A model generated the notes under the pieces. The model did not search any database. It was not told the DNA's origin and worked only from the letters and a program-made list of their open reading frames with translations. Made by a program: the position numbers and the translations under genes. Positions 1,378-34,182 of a stretch of DNA of 64,000 nucleotides are shown piece after piece; position 1 is the stretch's first letter; the number at the start of each line of letters is the position of its first letter. The DNA comes from Eubacteriales bacterium (GTDB lineage: Bacteria; Bacillota; Clostridia; Oscillospirales; CAG-272): NCBI GenBank assembly GCA_045544195.1, contig JAZPYO010000033.1, positions 21,650 through 85,649 of the forward strand, in the 5' to 3' direction.

Positions 1378-2364
1378 TTACAGTAATGTTGAAATAAGCT
1401 CTTCGTAAGATCTCAGGCTTAAATATGCAGGCGGAATATCAAAAACTGTTTTACATCCGATATCGCCCTTTTGTGCCATTCTGTACGCCGCTCTTGCAAA
1501 GGCAATTATTGCAGATGATGTAAATTCGGGATTCGAATCCAGCTTTAAGCTGTATTCAATAACGTGCTTATTCTCACCGTTAAGTCCCGTGCAGCCGCTT
1601 CTGATAACGAATCCGCCGTGCGGCATCGCGCTGTGCTTTTCACGCAGCTCGTCAAGAGAGATGAATGTCACGCTTGTATCATAATCGGCGAAGTAATTCG
1701 GCATTTCCTTAATTTCTTTTTCAATTCTCGCCTTGTCTGCCCCCTCTGATGCTACAACAAAGCATTCGCGTGTGTGCTTTTGTCTTGTTGTAAGGGAAGG
1801 CTCCGTACCGGATCTTACCGCATTAAGTGCAGATTCAACGGGAACTGTGTACTGCTTTGCATCAATTACGCCGTCTATTCTGCGGATGGCATCCGAATGT
1901 CCCTGGCTTACTCCCTTTCCCCAAAATGTATAATCGCTTCCGCACGGCAAAACCGCCTCGCCATACAATCTGTTCAAGGAAAACATACCCGGATCCCAGC
2001 CTGCTGAAATAACTGCGATCTTTTTTCCTTCCTTCGATGCTTTATCCACGTTCGCAAAATGAACGGGGATATTTGCGTGAGTATCAAAGCTGTCAACTAT
2101 ATTGAAAAGCCTTGCAAGCTGAACCGATTGAACGGGCAGATCCTTTGCGCTGCCGCCGCACAGTATCATAACATCTATAAGATCCGTATACTCTGCAACA
2201 CTCTCAGCACTGATGACAGGCACACCGGGTGTTGATATTTTTACGCTTTTCGGATCACGTCTTGTAAACACGGCAGCTAACTGCATATCGGGGTTTTGTC
2301 TTATTGCGCTTTCTATTCCGCGCCCGAGATTGCCGTATCCGTATATTCCTATTCTTATGCTCAT
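1378..2364 (-). CDS. ddh: meso-diaminopimelate D-dehydrogenase
   Basis: 328 aa. N-terminal Rossmann motif IGIYGYGNLGRG. Length and overall sequence match Ddh. Only 13 nt separate it from the downstream GH43 gene. Confidence 0.85.
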   Translation of the reverse strand: MSIRIGIYGYGNLGRGIESAIRQNPDMQLAAVFTRRDPKSVKISTPGVPVISAESVAEYTDLIDVMILCGGSAKDLPVQSVQLARLFNIVDSFDTHANIPVHFANVDKASKEGKKIAVISAGWDPGMFSLNRLYGEAVLPCGSDYTFWGKGVSQGHSDAIRRIDGVIDAKQYTVPVESALNAVRSGTEPSLTTRQKHTRECFVVASEGADKARIEKEIKEMPNYFADYDTSVTFISLDELREKHSAMPHGGFVIRSGCTGLNGENKHVIEYSLKLDSNPEFTSSAIIAFARAAYRMAQKGDIGCKTVFDIPPAYLSLRSYEELISTLL

Positions 2365-2429
2365 ATAAAACTCCGTTTTGTATTTTTCATTATTATATCA
2401 CAGTATTATTCCTTTTTCAATACCGATAA

Positions 2430-2460
2430 CAAAAATTGCCGCAAATAAATTGCGGCAATT
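2430..2460 (-). terminator. rho-independent terminator after ispH-S1 gene
   Basis: Hairpin ATTGCCGC...GCGGCAAT (2435-2459), followed on the minus strand by TTTTTGT. Confidence 0.7.
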
Positions 2461-2476
2461 TTAATGTTAATACTGA

Positions 2477-4537
2477 TTATTCAGCGTCATTCTGACCTTC
2501 AATGGGAGCCTCGTCCGAATATACGAGTGTTTCGCCATCTTCCTGTTCTTCCTCCTCAACAGCTTCCTCAGCGGGAGCTATGAGAGCGCGGATGGAAAGA
2601 CCGATCTGATGCTTTTCCTCGTCTACGGAAACGATCTTGGCTTCAACCTCTTCGCCTACCGTAAGTACATCGCCGGGCTTGTCTATCTTTCTGTCAGCGA
2701 TCTGAGAGATGTGGATAAGACCGTCAGCGCCCGGAAGTATCTGTGCAAATGCGCCGAAGGGCATAAGGCTTACTATCTTAACCTTAACAACATCGCCTAC
2801 ATTGTACTGATTGGTGAACAGTGTCCAGGGATTTGATTCCTCTGTCTTGTATCCGAGGGCAATGCGTCTTTTTTCAGCATCGAATTCCTTAACGAAAACT
2901 TCGATCTTCTGACCTACAGCAACTACCTGTGCAGGATTCTTTATTCTCTGCCAGGAAAGCTCTGTAACGTGTACCATACCGTCGATGCCGCATCCGAGAT
3001 CAACAAATGCACCGTATGATGTAAGAGACTTGATCTCACCTACATAGTGCTTACCAACCTCAATGTTTGCCCAGAATTCAGCCTCAGCCTTCTTTCTTTC
3101 CTCACGCACAACAACACGCTCAGACGCCTTTGCTCTGTGCTTTGCTTCATCGATCTCAATGATCTTGACCTTTGCACGCTTGCCGTTAACTGTTGTAAGG
3201 TCGCCGTCGCGGGGAACAGTCGTGTGTGATGCGGGAACGAACACTCTCACGCCGTCAATGGACATAATAACGCCGCCCTTAACGACTTCGACATATCTTC
3301 CTTCAAGTATTTCGCCGCTTTCATATGCAGCAACGATAGATGACCACTTGTTCTTTGCGTCGATCTTCTTTTTGGAAAGAACAGCAACACCGTCAACATC
3401 AGATACTCTTACTGCTATTGCCTGCACCGTGTCGCCAACCTTGAAAACCTCTTCCAGCTTGATGCCGGGCTCATCGGTAATATCGTCATATGACAATATA
3501 CCTGTAACTTTTGCACCAAGATCGACATGTATCTCATTGCTGGATACCGCTATAACAGTACCCGTTACGACATCTCCTGTATTTAAAGTTTTGAAAGATT
3601 CCTCCAGCATTTGTGCGAAATTTTCTTCGCCTACATTTTTGAGTTCCTCGCTCATTTTTCTTCTTACCTCCTGTATTATACTATCCGGCGTTGAAGCACC
3701 GGCAGTTATTCCTATATTATTGTATTCTGAAAAATCATACTCATCAAGCTCTGACACTCGTTCGATCATAATAGCATGACGGCAGTTTTCCTTTGCTATA
3801 TGAAAAAGTTTGTTCGTATTTGAGCTATCAGCACCGCCAATTATCACCATTATGTCAACTTTTGATGAAAGTTCTTCGGTTTCTTTTTGTCTGTTTTCAG
3901 TTACACTGCATATTGTATCAAAAATTTTTGTATTAGTATATAGTTTTTTGAGTTTTTTTTGTGACTTTTTACACTCAAACAAATTTTGTGTTGTTTGAGA
4001 TACCATTATTGTCTTTGCAGGCTCAATTTTTCTCCTGCTTGCCATTTTTTCAATATCCTCTTCGAATAATACTGTTTCAACATCACCGTTCGCGTAGCTT
4101 TTTATACCCTCTACCTCGGGATGCTTACTGTCACCGAATACGACTGTAAGCGTATCAGCATCGGAATTATCGTTTACGATATTATGAATTTTTTTAACAT
4201 ATGGGCATGTACAGTCTACGAAAGAAAAATACGGATTGTCCTCTGCGCTCTTTGCGAGCTTTTCGGAAATATCCCTCGTCACCCCGTGAGTTCTTACTAT
4301 TATCACCGCAGGATTATCCTTTTCGGCGCTTTTGACTATGGAATCTATATCGTCAATGGATATTATCCTTACGCCCTTTGCTTCAAGCTCCTCTGTAACT
4401 ATCGGGTTATGAATGATCTTTCCGAGTGTATATATACGCGAGCCGCTTTGCTCCTTTATTATATCGTATACCGTCTTTATTGCTCTTTCAACTCCAAAGC
4501 AAAATCCCGCGTATTTTGCAACTGTTACGTTTTTCAT
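2477..4537 (-). CDS. ispH: bifunctional 4-hydroxy-3-methylbut-2-enyl diphosphate reductase (IspH/LytB) fused to ribosomal-protein-S1-like RNA-binding repeats
   Basis: 686 aa. N-terminal AKYAGFCFGVERAI and later IspH blocks, followed by four S1-domain repeats (for example GxVxxxxxxGAFVDLG-like segments). This fusion is well known in Clostridia. Confidence 0.9.
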   Translation of the reverse strand: MKNVTVAKYAGFCFGVERAIKTVYDIIKEQSGSRIYTLGKIIHNPIVTEELEAKGVRIISIDDIDSIVKSAEKDNPAVIIVRTHGVTRDISEKLAKSAEDNPYFSFVDCTCPYVKKIHNIVNDNSDADTLTVVFGDSKHPEVEGIKSYANGDVETVLFEEDIEKMASRRKIEPAKTIMVSQTTQNLFECKKSQKKLKKLYTNTKIFDTICSVTENRQKETEELSSKVDIMVIIGGADSSNTNKLFHIAKENCRHAIMIERVSELDEYDFSEYNNIGITAGASTPDSIIQEVRRKMSEELKNVGEENFAQMLEESFKTLNTGDVVTGTVIAVSSNEIHVDLGAKVTGILSYDDITDEPGIKLEEVFKVGDTVQAIAVRVSDVDGVAVLSKKKIDAKNKWSSIVAAYESGEILEGRYVEVVKGGVIMSIDGVRVFVPASHTTVPRDGDLTTVNGKRAKVKIIEIDEAKHRAKASERVVVREERKKAEAEFWANIEVGKHYVGEIKSLTSYGAFVDLGCGIDGMVHVTELSWQRIKNPAQVVAVGQKIEVFVKEFDAEKRRIALGYKTEESNPWTLFTNQYNVGDVVKVKIVSLMPFGAFAQILPGADGLIHISQIADRKIDKPGDVLTVGEEVEAKIVSVDEEKHQIGLSIRALIAPAEEAVEEEEQEDGETLVYSDEAPIEGQNDAE

Positions 4538-28923: not shown

Positions 28924-29823
28924 TCAGTTTTCGCCGCCGTCATTCTTCTTTGCTTTTTTTCTGTTTTTTCTGCCGTTTTTGAACATTTCCCTGTCTATTG
29001 TTTTTTTCACATTTGTAACGAGGAGCGACGCAAGCTGATTTGACAGTGAATTGTAATCAAGATTTCTTTTCAATTCTCCGTTGAGAGCCATGGATATCGT
29101 GCCTGTTTCTTCACTTACTACTATTATTATGGCATCGCTGTTTTCGCTCATTCCGATAGCCGCCCTGTGACGTGTTCCGAGATCGGCAACTATGTCCTCT
29201 CTCGTAGAAAGAGGCAAAAAGCAGCCCGCGGCACATATTCTTGTGCCTGTTATCACCATTGCTCCGTCGTGAAGCGATGCCTTATTGAAGAATATGTTCT
29301 TTATAAGCATTGAGTTGATATTTGCGTTTATGACAGTACCCGTCTTTATTATGTCGCCGAGCTTTGTCGTTCTTTCTATAACGATAAGCGCGCCCGTTTT
29401 TGTCTTAGCCATATCGCACACAGCATCGCAAATGTTCTTTATCGCCGAATATATTTCTGTATTAGTCTTCGTTTCGGTAATGTTCTTAAGGCTTTTCAGC
29501 GGCTCGCCACCAACCTTCTCAAGCGCTGAGCGTATCTCAGGCTGAAACAGTATCATAAGCGCGATTATTCCGACCTGGAATATATTTGACAAAACGAACC
29601 GCAATGCGTTCATATTGGCAAATTCACTGACGAGAAACACGAGCAGTAAGAACAGCACGCCTGCCGCCAGCTTACCTGCCCTGCGTCCTCTTATAAATTT
29701 GTAGAGCTGGTAAAGCAAAAACGCCACAAGAGCGACATCTATGTAATCCACGACCGACATTGAACGAACCTGTGCCCATAATGCAGAAACGCCTTGATTG
29801 AATGCATCGATAAAATCTGTCAT
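28924..29823 (-). CDS. cdaA: diadenylate cyclase CdaA (c-di-AMP synthase)
   Basis: 299 aa. Three N-terminal TM helices, then a DAC domain with DGAMVI and TRHRAA motifs. Confidence 0.95.
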   Translation of the reverse strand: MTDFIDAFNQGVSALWAQVRSMSVVDYIDVALVAFLLYQLYKFIRGRRAGKLAAGVLFLLLVFLVSEFANMNALRFVLSNIFQVGIIALMILFQPEIRSALEKVGGEPLKSLKNITETKTNTEIYSAIKNICDAVCDMAKTKTGALIVIERTTKLGDIIKTGTVINANINSMLIKNIFFNKASLHDGAMVITGTRICAAGCFLPLSTREDIVADLGTRHRAAIGMSENSDAIIIVVSEETGTISMALNGELKRNLDYNSLSNQLASLLVTNVKKTIDREMFKNGRKNRKKAKKNDGGEN

Positions 29824-29855
29824 ATAGCCTCCGAAATAAAACAGTAGTATATTTT

Positions 29856-29884
29856 ATAATATCACATATAGAAATTCAAATCAA
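29856..29884 (-). promoter_or_regulatory. putative sigma-A promoter for cdaA array
   Basis: On the minus strand: TTGATT (29884-29879), 17 nt, then TATTAT (29861-29856). The context is AT-rich, so specificity is low. Confidence 0.35.
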
Positions 29885-29990
29885 TTAATAAATAATAAAT
29901 ATTCTAATAATTAATGTATAACCGCATTTTTTTCGCATTCGGTTGATTTTTTTAAGAATTTGTGATATTATATCCGTAATATCAACGATA

Positions 29991-30044
29991 TTCAATAAAA
30001 ATTGACGGACAGTTGAGCTTTTGTTGAAGATAGCGATCTATAAT
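29991..30044 (+). promoter_or_regulatory. operator/promoter copy A: three 11-bp-phased TTGAn direct repeats plus -10 TATAAT, upstream of response regulator
   Basis: TTCAATAAAAATTGACGGACAGTTGAGCTTTTGTTGAAGATAGCGATCTATAAT. Repeats start at 30002, 30013 and 30024; the -10 is at 30039. It aligns without gaps to copy B at 31882-31935. Confidence 0.6.
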
Positions 30045-30158
30045 TCTTCTTGAAGATGTTCGTCTTTTTATGATAAAATAACATTTCAACAACATTATTT
30101 CAACAAGATCTAAAAATTCAAGGTGTAGTATTTTGGTGACAGGCAAGGAGGAATACTG

Positions 30159-30830
30159 ATGTTTCAGATACTGATCGCAGAGGATGACCGCGAGCTTCGC
30201 CAGCTTTTCGGTCACGTGCTTATAAAAAACGGTTATTCCGTAACGGGCGTTTCAAACGGAAAGGAAGCCCTTGACGCAATTGACCGTGAAAGATTTGATC
30301 TAATAATATCGGACATTATGATGCCGATAATAGACGGGTATGAGCTTGTTCGCATGCTCAGGGAATGCAACGATACAACACCCGTTTTAATGATAACGGC
30401 AAAGGACGCATTTGACGATATGCAGAAGGGCTTTTTATCGGGCAGCGACGACTATATGATAAAGCCCGTAAATGTCAACGAGATGCTTCTGAGGGTCAGC
30501 GCCCTGCTCCGCAGAGCAAAAATGATAAGCGAACGGAAGCAAACAATAGGAAACACCACAATGGAATACGATTCGCTCACGGTAATAACCGGAAACGAAA
30601 GGACTGTGCTTCCGCAAAAGGAATTTATGCTCTTATACAAAATGTCCTCTTATCCGGGCAAGATATTCACACGTCAGCAGCTTATGGACGATATATGGGG
30701 GTACGATTCCGAAACGGATACTCACACAGTTGAGGTACATATAGGCAGGCTCAGGGAAAAATTCAAAAACAACAACGATTTCAAGATCGTAACCATGCGC
30801 GGAGTCGGATACAAGGTGGTAAAGATGTAA
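30159..30830 (+). CDS. OmpR/PhoB-family response regulator
   Basis: 223 aa. Receiver domain (DDRELR...DLIISDIMMP...KP) plus a winged-helix C-terminus (HTVEVHIGRLREK...RGVGY). SD AAGGAGG precedes it. Confidence 0.95.
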   Translation: MFQILIAEDDRELRQLFGHVLIKNGYSVTGVSNGKEALDAIDRERFDLIISDIMMPIIDGYELVRMLRECNDTTPVLMITAKDAFDDMQKGFLSGSDDYMIKPVNVNEMLLRVSALLRRAKMISERKQTIGNTTMEYDSLTVITGNERTVLPQKEFMLLYKMSSYPGKIFTRQQLMDDIWGYDSETDTHTVEVHIGRLREKFKNNNDFKIVTMRGVGYKVVKM

Positions 30831-31876
30831 TGCCGAAGAATAAAACGAAGAAAAAGAAGGAAAAACGAACGCCGGGACTAAGAATAACGCTGTGGTTCAC
30901 GCTCATAGTAATGCTTGAAATACTTGCAACGGTATGGATGGCAGCGCCTTTGTCAGAGTTTCTCGGAGAAAAATCGGACGTTAACTATTCTGTATGGCTG
31001 TGCTTGATAAGCATCTCCGTCGGATTTGTTTTTGCGTATTTCGTTAACGGCGCTATATTGCGCCCTATCAGCCGCTTGAGCGATGCTATGTCAAAGGTGG
31101 CATCGGGTGATTTCGGCATACGGCTTGAAGCTCCGAAAACCATAAAGATCAAGGAGATAAAAAATACATACGAAAGCTTTAATCTGATGTCAGCAGAGCT
31201 GAGTGCGACAGAAATTCTGCAAACGGATTTCGTGTCGAATGTTTCACACGAAATCAAGACCCCTGTTAACGCTATAGAGGGATATGCCGCTTTACTGCAA
31301 AACGAGGATAATACCCAACAGATGCAAAAGGAATATATTGATAAGATACTGTTCAACACGCGCCGTTTATCCGAGCTTGTCGGCAACATTCTCCTTTTGT
31401 CAAAGCTCGAAAACAGCGCAATACAGACAAGCTGCACACACTTTCGCTTAGATGAACAGATCCGCCGTTCAATAATGCTTTTAGAGCCGAAATGGACAGA
31501 AAAGGAAACGGAATTTGATGTGGAGATGGACAGCATTACCGTATATGCAAACGACGGGCTTCTTTTTCACGTATGGAACAATCTTATAGATAATGCGATA
31601 AAATTTTCTCCCTCGGGAGAGCTTATCACAATTCGTCTGACACGTACAGAGCAGTATGCAGTTTTCACTATAGAGGACAACGGAGACGGAATTTCAGAGG
31701 AAGCAAAAAAGCATATTTTCGATAAATTCTATCAAGGCGACAGCTCTCACAAGGATAACGGAAACGGTCTTGGGCTTGCATTGGTGAAGAAAATACTGTC
31801 GGTTGCAAACGGTGAGATAACAGTTGAAAATCTCTCGCCAAAAGGGTGCAGATTTACGGTAAATCTGCCGCTTTGA
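30830..31876 (+). CDS. sensor histidine kinase with minimal extracytoplasmic loop (intramembrane-sensing type)
   Basis: 348 aa. Two TM helices are separated by only about a dozen residues (PLSEFLGEKSDVNYS). HAMP-like linker, H-box SHEIKTP, then N/G boxes (DNAIKF, DNGDGI, GLGLA). The ATG overlaps the RR stop. Confidence 0.9.
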   Translation: MPKNKTKKKKEKRTPGLRITLWFTLIVMLEILATVWMAAPLSEFLGEKSDVNYSVWLCLISISVGFVFAYFVNGAILRPISRLSDAMSKVASGDFGIRLEAPKTIKIKEIKNTYESFNLMSAELSATEILQTDFVSNVSHEIKTPVNAIEGYAALLQNEDNTQQMQKEYIDKILFNTRRLSELVGNILLLSKLENSAIQTSCTHFRLDEQIRRSIMLLEPKWTEKETEFDVEMDSITVYANDGLLFHVWNNLIDNAIKFSPSGELITIRLTRTEQYAVFTIEDNGDGISEEAKKHIFDKFYQGDSSHKDNGNGLGLALVKKILSVANGEITVENLSPKGCRFTVNLPL

Positions 31877-31881
31877 CATTT

Positions 31882-31935
31882 TTCAACAAAAATTGAGCTT
31901 TAATTGAGGTTAGGTTGAGGTTGCGGATATATACT
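31882..31935 (+). promoter_or_regulatory. operator/promoter copy B: three 11-bp-phased TTGAG direct repeats plus -10 TATACT, upstream of lipid kinase-plsY
   Basis: TTCAACAAAAATTGAGCTTTAATTGAGGTTAGGTTGAGGTTGCGGATATATACT. Repeats start at 31893, 31904 and 31915; the -10 is at 31930. The geometry is the same as copy A. Confidence 0.6.
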
Positions 31936-31967
31936 TATTCGATATTTTTAATAAGGTGGGGACTGCC

Positions 31968-32861
31968 GTGAATAAGTACTATATAATCTACAATCCCTTA
32001 GCATGCGGAAATACCGCTTACGAAAAGGCGCTTGCTCTGTGTGACGAGCTTAAAGCAGAGGGCATTGCCGATATGACCAAAATAACGAATTACGAGGCAT
32101 TTCTTTCAGACAAGACCGACTGCAGCATCGTTGTGTGCGGCGGCGACGGCACTTTGCATCGCTTTGCGAACGATATATGTCACATCAACTTTCCGAATGA
32201 TATTTACTACTGCGCATCCGGCACGGGAAACGATTTTTACAGAGAATTTGAAAGCGATGAAAAGCTACTCTGTGTAACGCAGTATCTGTGCGATCTTCCC
32301 GTTTGTCACGTCAACGGCACTGTGCGTCATTTTATAAACGGAGTAGGATACGGCATTGACGGCTACTGCTGTGAGGTCGGAGACAAGCTCCGCGCCCTTT
32401 CAAAGCCCGTAAACTACGGAAAAATAGCGATAAAGGGTCTGCTGTATGCCTTCAGGCCCGTCAGCGCAACCGTCACCGTTGACGGTGAAAAATACGAATT
32501 CAGGAACGTATGGATAGCCCCGACTATGCACGGAAAATACTATGGGGGCGGTATGATACCTACGCCTGAGCAATCACGCACAGATCCTGACAATATGCTT
32601 TCCGTGTGCGTTTTTCATCGCAGAAGCAGGATCAAAACGCTTATGATGTTCCCTTCTATTTTCAAGGGAGAGCACATAAAATACAAAAAGAATGTACAGG
32701 TCCTGAAGGGCAAATGCATCAACGTTAAATTCAACAGATCGTGCTCTATGCAGATAGACGGAGAAACTTATCTGAATATCAACGAGTACGATGCATACGG
32801 AAGCGGCTGTGCTGAATATAAAGCGTCGGTAGTGAATAAAAACATGGTCTTCACAAAATAA
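31968..32861 (+). CDS. diacylglycerol/lipid kinase family protein (DagK/YegS/DgkB-like)
   Basis: GGDGTL motif (VVCGGDGTLHRF) and a C-terminal lipid-kinase fold. Start uncertain: I prefer the GTG at 31968, 7 nt after AAGGTGGGG, over the GTG at 31956 that lies inside that SD. Confidence 0.8.
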   Translation: MNKYYIIYNPLACGNTAYEKALALCDELKAEGIADMTKITNYEAFLSDKTDCSIVVCGGDGTLHRFANDICHINFPNDIYYCASGTGNDFYREFESDEKLLCVTQYLCDLPVCHVNGTVRHFINGVGYGIDGYCCEVGDKLRALSKPVNYGKIAIKGLLYAFRPVSATVTVDGEKYEFRNVWIAPTMHGKYYGGGMIPTPEQSRTDPDNMLSVCVFHRRSRIKTLMMFPSIFKGEHIKYKKNVQVLKGKCINVKFNRSCSMQIDGETYLNINEYDAYGSGCAEYKASVVNKNMVFTK

Positions 32862-32922
32862 TGATATTATGGCAGCCGCGATCGAAGGCGCAAAAAACAC
32901 GAAAGGAGAAATAACAGCTATG

Positions 32923-33543
32923 CAATATGCGCTCTGCATTCTTTCTGGATATATTATAGGATCGTTCAATCCGTCATACATCGTTGGAATGCTCAAGGGA
33001 AAGGATATTCGCTTCTCAGGCTCAGGCAATGCAGGCGCATCAAACGCCCTGCTGCATTTCGGCAAGGGGATAGGCATTTTATGCGCAATATGCGATATCT
33101 TGAAAGCGTGTCTTGTTGTATGGCTGTGCAGATATATTTTCTCTGATATAAGCTCTGCCGGCATAATAGGCGGATGCGCTTGTATTCTCGGTCACATTTT
33201 CCCGTTTTATATGGGCTTTAAAGGCGGAAAGGGACTTGCCTGCTACGGAGGACTCGTTTTAATGTTCGACTGGCGTGTATTTCTTATTTTCCTGTCACTT
33301 GAGCTGATCGTCGTATTCATAACTGACTATATATGCTTTGTTCCGATAACAGCGTGTGTTACATTTCCGATCGTATACGCCGTTATGACACATAACATTG
33401 TCGGAGCTGCGTTTCTTTTTGCCGTAGCGCCCGTTATACTTTACAAGCATCTCATAAACATAAAAAGAATAAAAAACGGAACAGAAGCAAAATTCAGGGA
33501 ATCGCTTTTCAAAAAAGGCTCTAAAGGTCAAAGCACCGAATAA
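32923..33543 (+). CDS. plsY: glycerol-3-phosphate acyltransferase PlsY (acyl-phosphate dependent)
   Basis: YIIGSFNPSY...SGNAGASNA and later GGKG motifs. Start at the ATG at 32923, preceded by AAAGGAGAA. The tracked ORF's 18-aa extension has no SD. Confidence 0.9.
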   Translation, partial: QYALCILSGYIIGSFNPSYIVGMLKGKDIRFSGSGNAGASNALLHFGKGIGILCAICDILKACLVVWLCRYIFSDISSAGIIGGCACILGHIFPFYMGFKGGKGLACYGGLVLMFDWRVFLIFLSLELIVVFITDYICFVPITACVTFPIVYAVMTHNIVGAAFLFAVAPVILYKHLINIKRIKNGTEAKFRESLFKKGSKGQSTE

Positions 33544-33575
33544 AAACGCATTTCATATGCGTTTTTTCTTTTTAT
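33543..33575 (+). terminator. rho-independent terminator after plsY
   Basis: 9-bp stem AAAACGCAT / ATGCGTTTT followed by a T-run. Confidence 0.8.
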
Positions 33576-33601
33576 AAAAGGTATTATTCATAATCTACGG
33601 C

Positions 33602-33630
33602 TTGAAATATTTCATTTCATATGTTATAAT
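33602..33630 (+). promoter_or_regulatory. sigma-A promoter (extended -10) for rimM-trmD array
   Basis: TTGAAA (33602-33607), 17 nt, then TGtTATAAT (-10 at 33625-33630). Confidence 0.65.
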
Positions 33631-33678
33631 GCTTTTAATTACGGTCTTAAGCGACTTCTGAAAGGAGTACCGTTTTCA

Positions 33679-34182
33679 ATGAGAAAGCTATCTGAATATA
33701 TACAGATCGGCAGAATTACAAATACACACGGAATAAAGGGTGAAATGAAGGTCGAATACTGGATGGATTCACCACAGGACTTTTTATCTCTCCGCACAGT
33801 ATATCTTGAGGACGGATGTGCCTTGAATATACTTTCGTCAAGAAATGCCAACAAATTCGCAGTTGTATTATTTGAAGGGATAACCGATCCTGAAAAGGGC
33901 GCACATCTCAAGGGAAGATCACTTTATGCAAAGCGGTCTGATCTGAGGCTTGAGCAAGGCAGCTATTTTCTGTGCGATCTTATCGGTCTGCCCGTTTTTG
34001 ATGTTGACACAGAAGAGCGCGTCGGATGTGTGACGGACATTCTTGAAAAGCCGTCGTCATACGTTTATACCGTCAAAACGGAAAACGGTGAATTTCTCGT
34101 TCCCGCAATTGACGAGTTCATCAAAAGAGTCGATATAGAAAACGGCGTTTACATAAAGGTAATACCGGGGTTATTGGAATGA
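33679..34182 (+). CDS. rimM: 16S rRNA processing protein RimM
   Basis: 167 aa. IGRITNTHGIKGEMKV N-terminus and a PRC-barrel C-terminus. Adjacent to trmD. Confidence 0.9.
   Translation: MRKLSEYIQIGRITNTHGIKGEMKVEYWMDSPQDFLSLRTVYLEDGCALNILSSRNANKFAVVLFEGITDPEKGAHLKGRSLYAKRSDLRLEQGSYFLCDLIGLPVFDVDTEERVGCVTDILEKPSSYVYTVKTENGEFLVPAIDEFIKRVDIENGVYIKVIPGLLE

Follow-up and report, generated by a model that had tools for sequence, protein, structure and literature searches.

A conserved four-half-site operator-promoter associated with an OmpR/PhoB-type two-component system and predicted to control lipid and envelope genes in Clostridia

The DNA analysed in this study (the window) is a stretch of 64,000 nucleotides (64 kb) of contig JAZPYO010000033.1 from a member of the Eubacteriales (Clostridia). 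It harbours a two-component system followed by two lipid genes, in the order response regulator, histidine kinase, lipid kinase and plsY, and its upstream neighbour is the divergently oriented cdaA gene, with ybbR behind it. Two similar segments of 54 nt, referred to as A and B, are located upstream of the regulator gene and between the histidine kinase and lipid kinase genes, respectively, and are the candidate operators considered here. The coordinates of all features are presented in Table 1.

Table 1. Features of the two-component system and lipid gene locus in the window
Feature	Coordinates	Strand	Description
Canonical sigma-70-type promoter	29943..29971	+	TTGATT-17-TATTAT with TG (extended -10), ~20 bp upstream of operator A
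Operator/promoter A (predicted)	29991..30044	+	inverted TCAATAA 29992-29998; three direct TTGA starting at 30002/30013/30024; -10 TATAAT 30039-30044; predicted start ~30051
Two extra TTTCAACAA copies	30084-30092 and 30098-30106	+	in the regulator leader
Response regulator	30159..30830	+	223 aa, OmpR/PhoB family; Response_reg + Trans_reg_C (Pfam)
Histidine kinase	30830..31876	+	348 aa; two transmembrane helices, HAMP, HisKA, HATPase_c (Pfam)
Operator/promoter B (predicted)	31882..31935	+	inverted TCAACAA 31883-31889; three direct TTGA starting at 31893/31904/31915; -10 TATACT 31930-31935; predicted start ~31942
DAGK_cat/YegS_C lipid kinase	31968..32861	+	likely start GTG 31968, 297 aa; longest open reading frame (ORF) from 31956
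PlsY-type acyl-phosphate:glycerol-3-phosphate acyltransferase	32921..33543	+	207 aa from ATG 32921; G3P_acyltransf
Intrinsic-terminator-like hairpin	33542..33566	+	10-pair stem then T run; closes the kinase-PlsY unit

An earlier note on this locus had named the four genes as an OmpR-type regulator, a HAMP-containing histidine kinase, a lipid kinase and PlsY, and these identities held at family level. The regulator matched PF00072 (E-value 9.7e-28) and PF00486 (7.9e-22), and the regulator, the histidine kinase and the lipid kinase all scored below every named NCBIfam equivalog cutoff. Hydropathy placed the two transmembrane helices of the histidine kinase at residues ~19-41 and ~55-77, separated by a loop of only ~12-13 residues, and the HAMP domain covers residues 72-125. 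By hydropathy and Pfam, this is the predicted layout of an intramembrane-sensing kinase.

The start given for the lipid kinase is likely because a homologue with 88% identity (P0001) is also 297 aa long. The best NCBIfam model for this protein was TIGR00147 (YegS/Rv2252/BmrU), with 79.3 bits against a cutoff of 118.65, while the DgkB model PRK13337 gave 35.6 bits (cutoff 385), and the only matches among PDB sequences were weak ones to BmrU and DgkB (E 1e-6 to 1e-4). Assignment as a DgkB or YegS equivalog was ruled out, the scores being below all cutoffs, and by these comparisons the protein is a divergent YegS/BmrU-type paralogue and not DgkB. It had been proposed that the lipid kinase and PlsY both feed phosphatidic acid synthesis. 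A role in lipid metabolism fits the wider targets described below, but the diacylglycerol (DAG) kinase step is an assumption, as the kinase is not DgkB. The PlsY protein scored just above the cutoff of TIGR00023 (137.6 bits, cutoff 137.2), matched PF02660 with an E-value of 5e-42, and was also called as 207 aa in the syntenic relative L201. No terminator was found between the lipid kinase and plsY genes in a promoter and terminator scan, and the two genes are probably co-transcribed.

Segments A and B were identical at 37 of 54 positions in a gapless alignment, a recount that agrees with the earlier figure, and both start with an exact TTCAAYAAAAATTGA, as had been reported. The pattern TTGA-N7-TTGA-N7-TTGA occurred only twice in the 64 kb (30002-30027 and 31893-31918), compared with a mean of 0.02 occurrences in dinucleotide shuffles, and none of 100 shuffles contained two or more. 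Each -10 hexamer begins exactly 15 bp after the start of the third TTGA. No TTGACA-like hexamer was found 16-18 bp upstream of either -10, and neither segment was called as a canonical promoter in a consensus promoter scan, which is in line with the original description of a -10 at a fixed distance without a -35. Three direct TTGA repeats at 11-bp intervals had been described for each segment, and these were present; the number of half-sites was too low, however, as each operator consists of four TTGTTGA-related half-sites on one face of the helix with an 11-bp period, of which the first (TCAACAA) is inverted and the other three are direct (r)TTGA repeats. The GTTGAA hexamer of the third direct repeat stops 10 bp short of the -10, in the usual place of a -35.

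A recent local duplication of a promoter, or chance similarity between AT-rich sequences, would give such a pair of segments no regulatory meaning. Only two copies are present in the window, and TTCAAYAAAAATTGA alone is a short pattern that was not significant in the window scan when two mismatches were allowed, both of which would fit that explanation. The identity between A and B was nevertheless clustered in the half-sites and the -10, with divergent spacers, and no other pair reached 30/54 or more when each segment was slid across both strands of the window. The same pattern was also found in distant genomes ahead of functionally related genes, a degree of conservation that contradicts duplication or chance, and this explanation is considered hardly credible. 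A weight matrix for the core of the motif gave 40.6 bits for A and 47.3 bits for B, and the best other position in the window scored 11.8 bits. The two look-alike stretches are real and, judged by their sequences, are conserved sites with built-in promoters.

To examine orthologous loci, 80 loci from species-representative genomes, nearly all of them metagenome-assembled genomes (MAGs) of gut and rumen Clostridia, were fetched via an alignment of lipid-kinase homologues. A related two-component system was detected by tblastn beside the kinase gene on the same strand in L001, L002, L004, L012, L041 and L079, and in divergent orientation in L034, L060, L061, L076 and L080. The bare TTGA-N7-TTGA-N7-TTGA pattern was present in six kinase loci, always directly upstream of the kinase or the regulator, and all six matches had TCAACAA before and a -10 after the repeats at the same distances as in the window. 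The weight matrix added sites in L041, in L079 and at two more places in L076. The latter locus has back-to-back sites for the divergent regulator and kinase, and a third site before an operon encoding a RelA_SpoT synthetase and a CDP-alcohol phosphatidyltransferase. The loci fetched by kinase homology in which the motif precedes the kinase or its operon were L001, L002, L004, L005, L006, L041, L076 and L079.

Comparison of the phasing at orthologous loci had been proposed as a check. All 11 aligned sites, which come from 8 genomes, retained the 11-bp phasing and the 15-bp offset to the -10, as did L201 and L202, and both window sites likewise had tandem repeats with a period of 11 bp. The 11 sites share the invariant columns TCAA, TTGA, A-N-TTGA, TTG and TAT..T with variable spacers, and their consensus was tTCAACAAwwrTTGA-N5-A-N-TTGA-N7-TTGaa-N12-TATnnT. 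Across the loci, the overall architecture (motif 1) can be written as TCAACAA-N3-TTGA-N7-TTGA-N7-TTG-N12-TAnnnT, without a -35. The first two half-sites form a TCAACAA/TTGTTGA palindrome.

In two syntenic relatives, L201 and L202, with kinase identities of 88% and 63%, respectively, the gene order is cdaA, regulator, histidine kinase, lipid kinase, plsY, rimM and trmD, and both sites were retained in each while the surrounding intergenic DNA had diverged. The -10 of site A in L202 is TACCAT, at an unchanged offset of +15. Site B was nearly invariant in L001 and L201 and was conserved in L202 and L203, with changes in the spacers. The regulator operon is preceded by a site in the window, L201, L202, L076, L082, L125, L132 and L152; in L088, L090 and L153 the site is located farther upstream. 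The recurrence of sites before the regulator operon in so many loci supports the predicted autoregulation of the two-component system.

In L088 (8266-9360), L090 (2334-2690) and L153 (minus strand, 2400-2726), an ORF of 67-68 aa resembling a helix-turn-helix protein (MDYISVREAAERWGVSERWVQKFC...) was observed between the operator and the regulator gene, with a TTGACA...TACAAT promoter of its own.

Metagenome contigs were scanned for the exact pattern TCAAYMANNNTTGANNNNNANTTGANNNNNNNTTG-N12-TATNNT, and it was found in more than 120 stretches at least. By our own estimate from base composition, with an assumed collection size, less than one match to the full pattern was expected by chance. Among the matches listed there were 128 sites with at least 87 distinct sequences, and the first ORF began at a median of 33 nt from the -10, as expected of promoters. 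For the 87 distinct listed sites, the first downstream gene was most often the DAGK-like kinase (14 sites) or an ABC_tran ATPase, usually in the form of an FtsX-permease fusion of ~1000 aa (13 sites). These were followed by the regulator/kinase operon, a PgsA/ClsA-like CDP-alcohol phosphatidyltransferase below the PgsA cutoff, and DegV of the FakB family (7 sites each), an MGDG-synthase-like glycosyltransferase (6), FtsH (3), and FakA and a CrtO-like acyltransferase (2 each). Operons headed by a site, or genes behind single sites, also encoded PlsC-type acyltransferases, PAP2, a RelA_SpoT synthetase, a GT8-VTT (DedA) fusion, a DUF368-acyltransferase fusion, ABC exporters, a P-type ATPase, MntP, rhomboid and choloylglycine hydrolase.

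The lipid kinase and PlsY had been predicted as a pair of targets. The kinase part of this prediction was borne out, as it is the commonest first downstream gene; PlsY follows a site only in the lineage of the window, and in L034, which has a second type of site (see below), it is located behind the regulator and histidine kinase. A membrane-lipid role had also been suggested, and the wider set of downstream genes agrees with it, being mostly lipid or envelope genes. On the evidence of these contigs, the architecture occurs widely and is linked with functions in lipid metabolism and the envelope. The occurrence of the same operator before such genes across related Clostridia suggests a membrane-lipid or envelope stress regulon.

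Some features of the downstream genes were recorded separately. In L083, a motif-1 site lies directly before a gene of the choloylglycine (bile salt) hydrolase family (2051-3103), a hint of a possible link between bile and the regulon. In motif-bearing loci (L002, L005, L006, L012, L028, L076 and L079), the DAGK-like kinase was paired with the PgsA/ClsA-like CDP-alcohol phosphatidyltransferase (again below the PgsA cutoff), and no such partner was present in the other kinase loci; the two genes look like a conserved two-enzyme lipid module. The fusion of an ABC ATPase to an FtsX-type permease, of ~1000 aa, was found in L149 (1111-4128) and in 35 related ORFs, and is among the two commonest predicted targets. 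In Bce/MacB-type systems the ABC ATPase and the permease are usually separate proteins.

The type of motif was found to change with the lineage of the regulator. A sister lineage of regulators, 52-53% identical to the window regulator, was present in L034, L061 and L080, and L060, with a truncated regulator match of 45% identity, behaved in the same way. Motif 1 was not found in any of these four loci, and AGTTTATTTTCAGTTTA (GTTTA-N6-GTTTA) was present in its place. The -10 of this type-2 repeat lies exactly 16 bp after the second G, in the same geometry as for motif 1, and in L034 the type-2 motif occurs at both sides of the intergenic region between the divergent regulator/kinase genes. The recognition helix is DTHTV(E/D)VHIGRLR in the window regulator and type-1 lineage and GWETVTVHIGRLR in the sister lineage, the two differing at the start of the helix. 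The change of motif type with the regulator lineage ties the motif to the regulator, and this covariation is, among the sequence comparisons made, the strongest evidence at hand for recognition of the repeats by the adjacent regulator rather than by another factor.

At 926-985 and 4348-4380 of L012, a variant self-site for the regulator (TTGAC-N6-TTGAC) and a GTTTA repeat before the CDP-OH transferase/kinase operon were observed, which implies cross-regulation or the coexistence of two related systems within a single organism.

Taken with the fixed geometry and the gene associations, it is likely that both segments are operator-promoters of the adjacent OmpR/PhoB-type regulator, which would activate its own operon and the lipid-kinase/PlsY pair. 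The histidine kinase would sense a disturbance in or at the membrane and phosphorylate the regulator, and the phosphorylated regulator would then oligomerise on the four half-sites and recruit RNA polymerase. Transcription of the regulator operon from A and of the lipid-kinase/PlsY pair from B would thereby be raised, with starts predicted at about 30051 and 31942. The geometry corresponds to known OmpR/PhoB-type activation, as had been recognised at the outset: the tandem repeats bound by PhoB in Escherichia coli are 8 bp long, are separated by 3-bp linkers (an 11-bp period) and are located 10 bp upstream of TAN3T/A, and SphR of Synechocystis needs at least three repeats (PMC1906773). As in PhoB/PhoR and SphR, the 11-bp direct repeats here are placed ~10 bp before TAN3T and replace the -35, and the two-component operon is predicted to be autoregulated. 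In contrast to PhoB/PhoR, the repeats have another sequence, lipid and envelope genes rather than a phosphate regulon are the predicted targets, the kinase lacks the PAS/periplasmic sensing module of the PhoR type, and an inverted half-site is present upstream.

Several observations weigh against control by the adjacent regulator, or against activation by it. Neither motif was found at the other 66 of the 80 kinase-orthologue loci, which also had no adjacent two-component system, and control by this two-component system would accordingly be confined to a subclade. The pattern used for the metagenome scan demanded every element of the architecture, and the matches cannot therefore show that these elements co-occur by necessity. 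In L012, a type-1 regulator is found beside a type-2 site, so that adjacency is an imperfect guide. The inverted first half-site is unusual for OmpR/PhoB regulators and could belong to another dimeric factor. Finally, the conserved canonical promoter lies 20 bp upstream of A, and bound regulator could also block read-through from it.

If another factor, such as a dimeric helix-turn-helix protein, bound the TCAACAA/TTGTTGA palindrome, the two-component operon would be just one of its targets. This possibility is raised by the palindrome itself, whose 14 bp are perfect in L006 and L079 and which is atypical for OmpR/PhoB proteins, and by the site in L005, which has no two-component system within 5 kb. 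Against it, the type of motif was seen to change in step with the adjacent regulator's lineage and recognition helix, and the 11-bp direct-repeat period and the replacement of the -35 are hallmarks of the OmpR/PhoB family. Moreover, the two-component system adjoins the targets in several arrangements, both co-directional and divergent, and in the unbiased matches to three TTGA repeats the palindrome never occurred without the two downstream repeats. Recognition by a different factor is therefore considered quite unlikely.

The other alternative accepts the motif as the operator of the regulator but assigns it mainly a repressor or roadblock role, with the -35 and spacer region occupied and autoregulation being negative. 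The canonical promoter immediately upstream of A is relevant in this regard, as both hexamers, the spacing and the TG are retained in L201 and L202, and the half-sites do reach within ~10 bp of the -10. A -10 at a fixed distance without a -35, found in 11/11 aligned sites and in the 87 distinct listed sites, is however a signature of activator-dependent promoters (PMC1906773), and most of the target sites, including B, have no upstream canonical promoter that could be blocked. Repression as the main function is accordingly judged unlikely. The 29943-29971 promoter probably drives basal expression of the regulator operon, and together with the predicted inducible promoter in A it would form a basal-plus-inducible arrangement similar to that of sae.

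With regard to the signal, the short-loop kinase and the nature of the targets point to perturbation of the membrane itself. SaeS of Staphylococcus aureus is an intramembrane-sensing kinase with two transmembrane helices, a 9-aa linker and a HAMP domain (PMC5083920), and in this organism free fatty acids inhibit SaeRS, an inhibition that is relieved by FakA (PMC5539427). By analogy with this case, free fatty acids are a reasonable but unproven candidate for the signal. A more specific version, which is put forward tentatively as a possibility, is that gut and rumen Clostridia use the system to sense free fatty acids or membrane lipids: a SaeS-like kinase would detect a perturbation of the bilayer by fatty acids, bile or lipids, and the four-half-site operator would switch on a complete pathway for uptake and detoxification of exogenous fatty acids, as well as head-group remodelling and export. 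Uptake would proceed via FakA/FakB to acyl-phosphate, and then via PlsY and PlsC. Head-group remodelling would involve the DAGK-like kinase, the PgsA/ClsA-like transferase, the glycolipid synthase and PAP2, and the ABC-FtsX exporter, FtsH and the small alarmone synthetase would be further outputs. If this is correct, the system would represent a two-component regulon of Firmicutes dedicated to membrane-lipid homeostasis, and it would mirror the situation in staphylococci, in which SaeRS lies downstream of Fak and fatty acids.

The resemblance to Sae extends beyond the sensor. Besides two transmembrane helices, HAMP and a kinase core, both kinases have a very short linker (9 aa in SaeS, ~12-13 here), both regulators are of the OmpR type, and Sae combines autoregulation with a constitutive promoter, as is predicted here. 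SaeR binds GTTAA-N6-GTTAA, with three half-sites at six Sae promoters, and TTAA is reported to be required (PMC5083920). The repeat GTTGA-N6-GTTGA of the present system is one base off this sequence. It is more generally (G/A)TTGA-N6-(G)TTGA with an invariant G at the fourth position, and thus departs from the SaeR sequence at the required base. The DNA-binding domain of the regulator alone gave 55 bits against SaeR, 64 against VicR/WalR and 57 against RegX3. Membership of SaeRS was rejected, given the difference at the required base, the absence of saePQ from the operon and a DNA-binding domain that scored no higher against SaeR than against VicR/WalR or RegX3. The present system also differs from Sae in its lipid and envelope targets in place of virulence factors and in the fourth, inverted half-site, and whereas FakA and fatty acids are an input to Sae, fakA, degV and plsY are among the predicted outputs here.

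Functional parallels exist in other two-component systems. The regulon study of ColRS in Pseudomonas reportedly mentions a diacylglycerol kinase. LiaFSR and SapRS of Enterococcus control daptomycin-induced lipid remodelling (PMC13123819). ColRS and LiaFSR/SapRS resemble the present system in the coupling of envelope sensing to lipid-related genes, but this is a functional analogy only, as they differ in phylum or regulator family (LiaR is of the NarL type), motif and targets. In Clostridioides difficile, the HexRK-hexSDF system of the YrkPQ family has a small lipid regulon that includes a glycosyltransferase of the MGDG-synthase family, and HexK has an extracytoplasmic domain of ~120 aa (PMC10128005). 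Clostridial two-component control of membrane-lipid enzymes, predicted for the present system, is common to both, and the MGDG-synthase family is among the predicted targets here too. The kinase of the present system has a loop of ~12-13 aa, however, and HexRK was rejected as a characterised homologue on the basis of kinase architecture; the targets are also different, and the two systems are not known to share an operator.

FapR and FabT are the main regulators through which the transcription of phospholipid synthesis genes is known to be controlled in Firmicutes, and we know of no description of a two-component system that controls Fak, PlsY, PlsC and head-group enzymes. The literature search returned no specific account of two-component control of DAG kinase, fakA or plsY in Clostridia, and no paper on this two-component family, its motif or its regulon. 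The regulatory principle is textbook; what is new is the specific operator and the lipid-centred regulon. The analysis defines the sequence, the phasing and the promoter geometry of an operator precisely enough for testing, and it predicts the regulon of an uncharacterised two-component family that occurs widely among uncultured Clostridia of the gut and rumen; the habitats of these organisms are rich in bile and toxic free fatty acids. It also flags the divergent DAGK-like kinase family as the most frequent target, and the system offers a route to asking what membrane signal is read by short-loop (SaeS-like) kinases.

The two extra copies of TTTCAACAA in the regulator leader had been pointed out in the earlier note and are present at both positions, but conservation in relatives is lacking: in L201 the second copy has mutated, the entire leader segment is missing from L202, and the leaders of other regulators have no counterpart. 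They were rejected as part of the operator and are probably outside the conserved system.

Upstream of cdaA, an AT-rich block (29840-29920, considered on the minus strand) was near-invariant even in L202, the relative with 63% identity. The block holds a minus-strand TTGATT-17-TATTAT(TG) at 29884-29856 and had no Rfam match; a search of 29500-34000 with E-values up to 1 found no RNA family, and the conserved intergenic blocks are thus not a known riboswitch or small RNA. A minus-strand TTGAAT-17-TATAAT that overlaps A (29995-29967) was rejected as the cdaA promoter, as it is not conserved in L202, and the sequence at 29884-29856 is a candidate with better conservation. The block could comprise the cdaA promoter plus a further control element.

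Among the kinase loci, eight contigs (L010, L018, L021, L022, L027, L040, L071 and L075) carry a typically clostridial kinase gene in MAGs labelled as Spirochaetales, Sphaerochaetaceae, Staphylococcaceae or Escherichia coli. These taxon labels probably reflect mis-binning or mislabelling.

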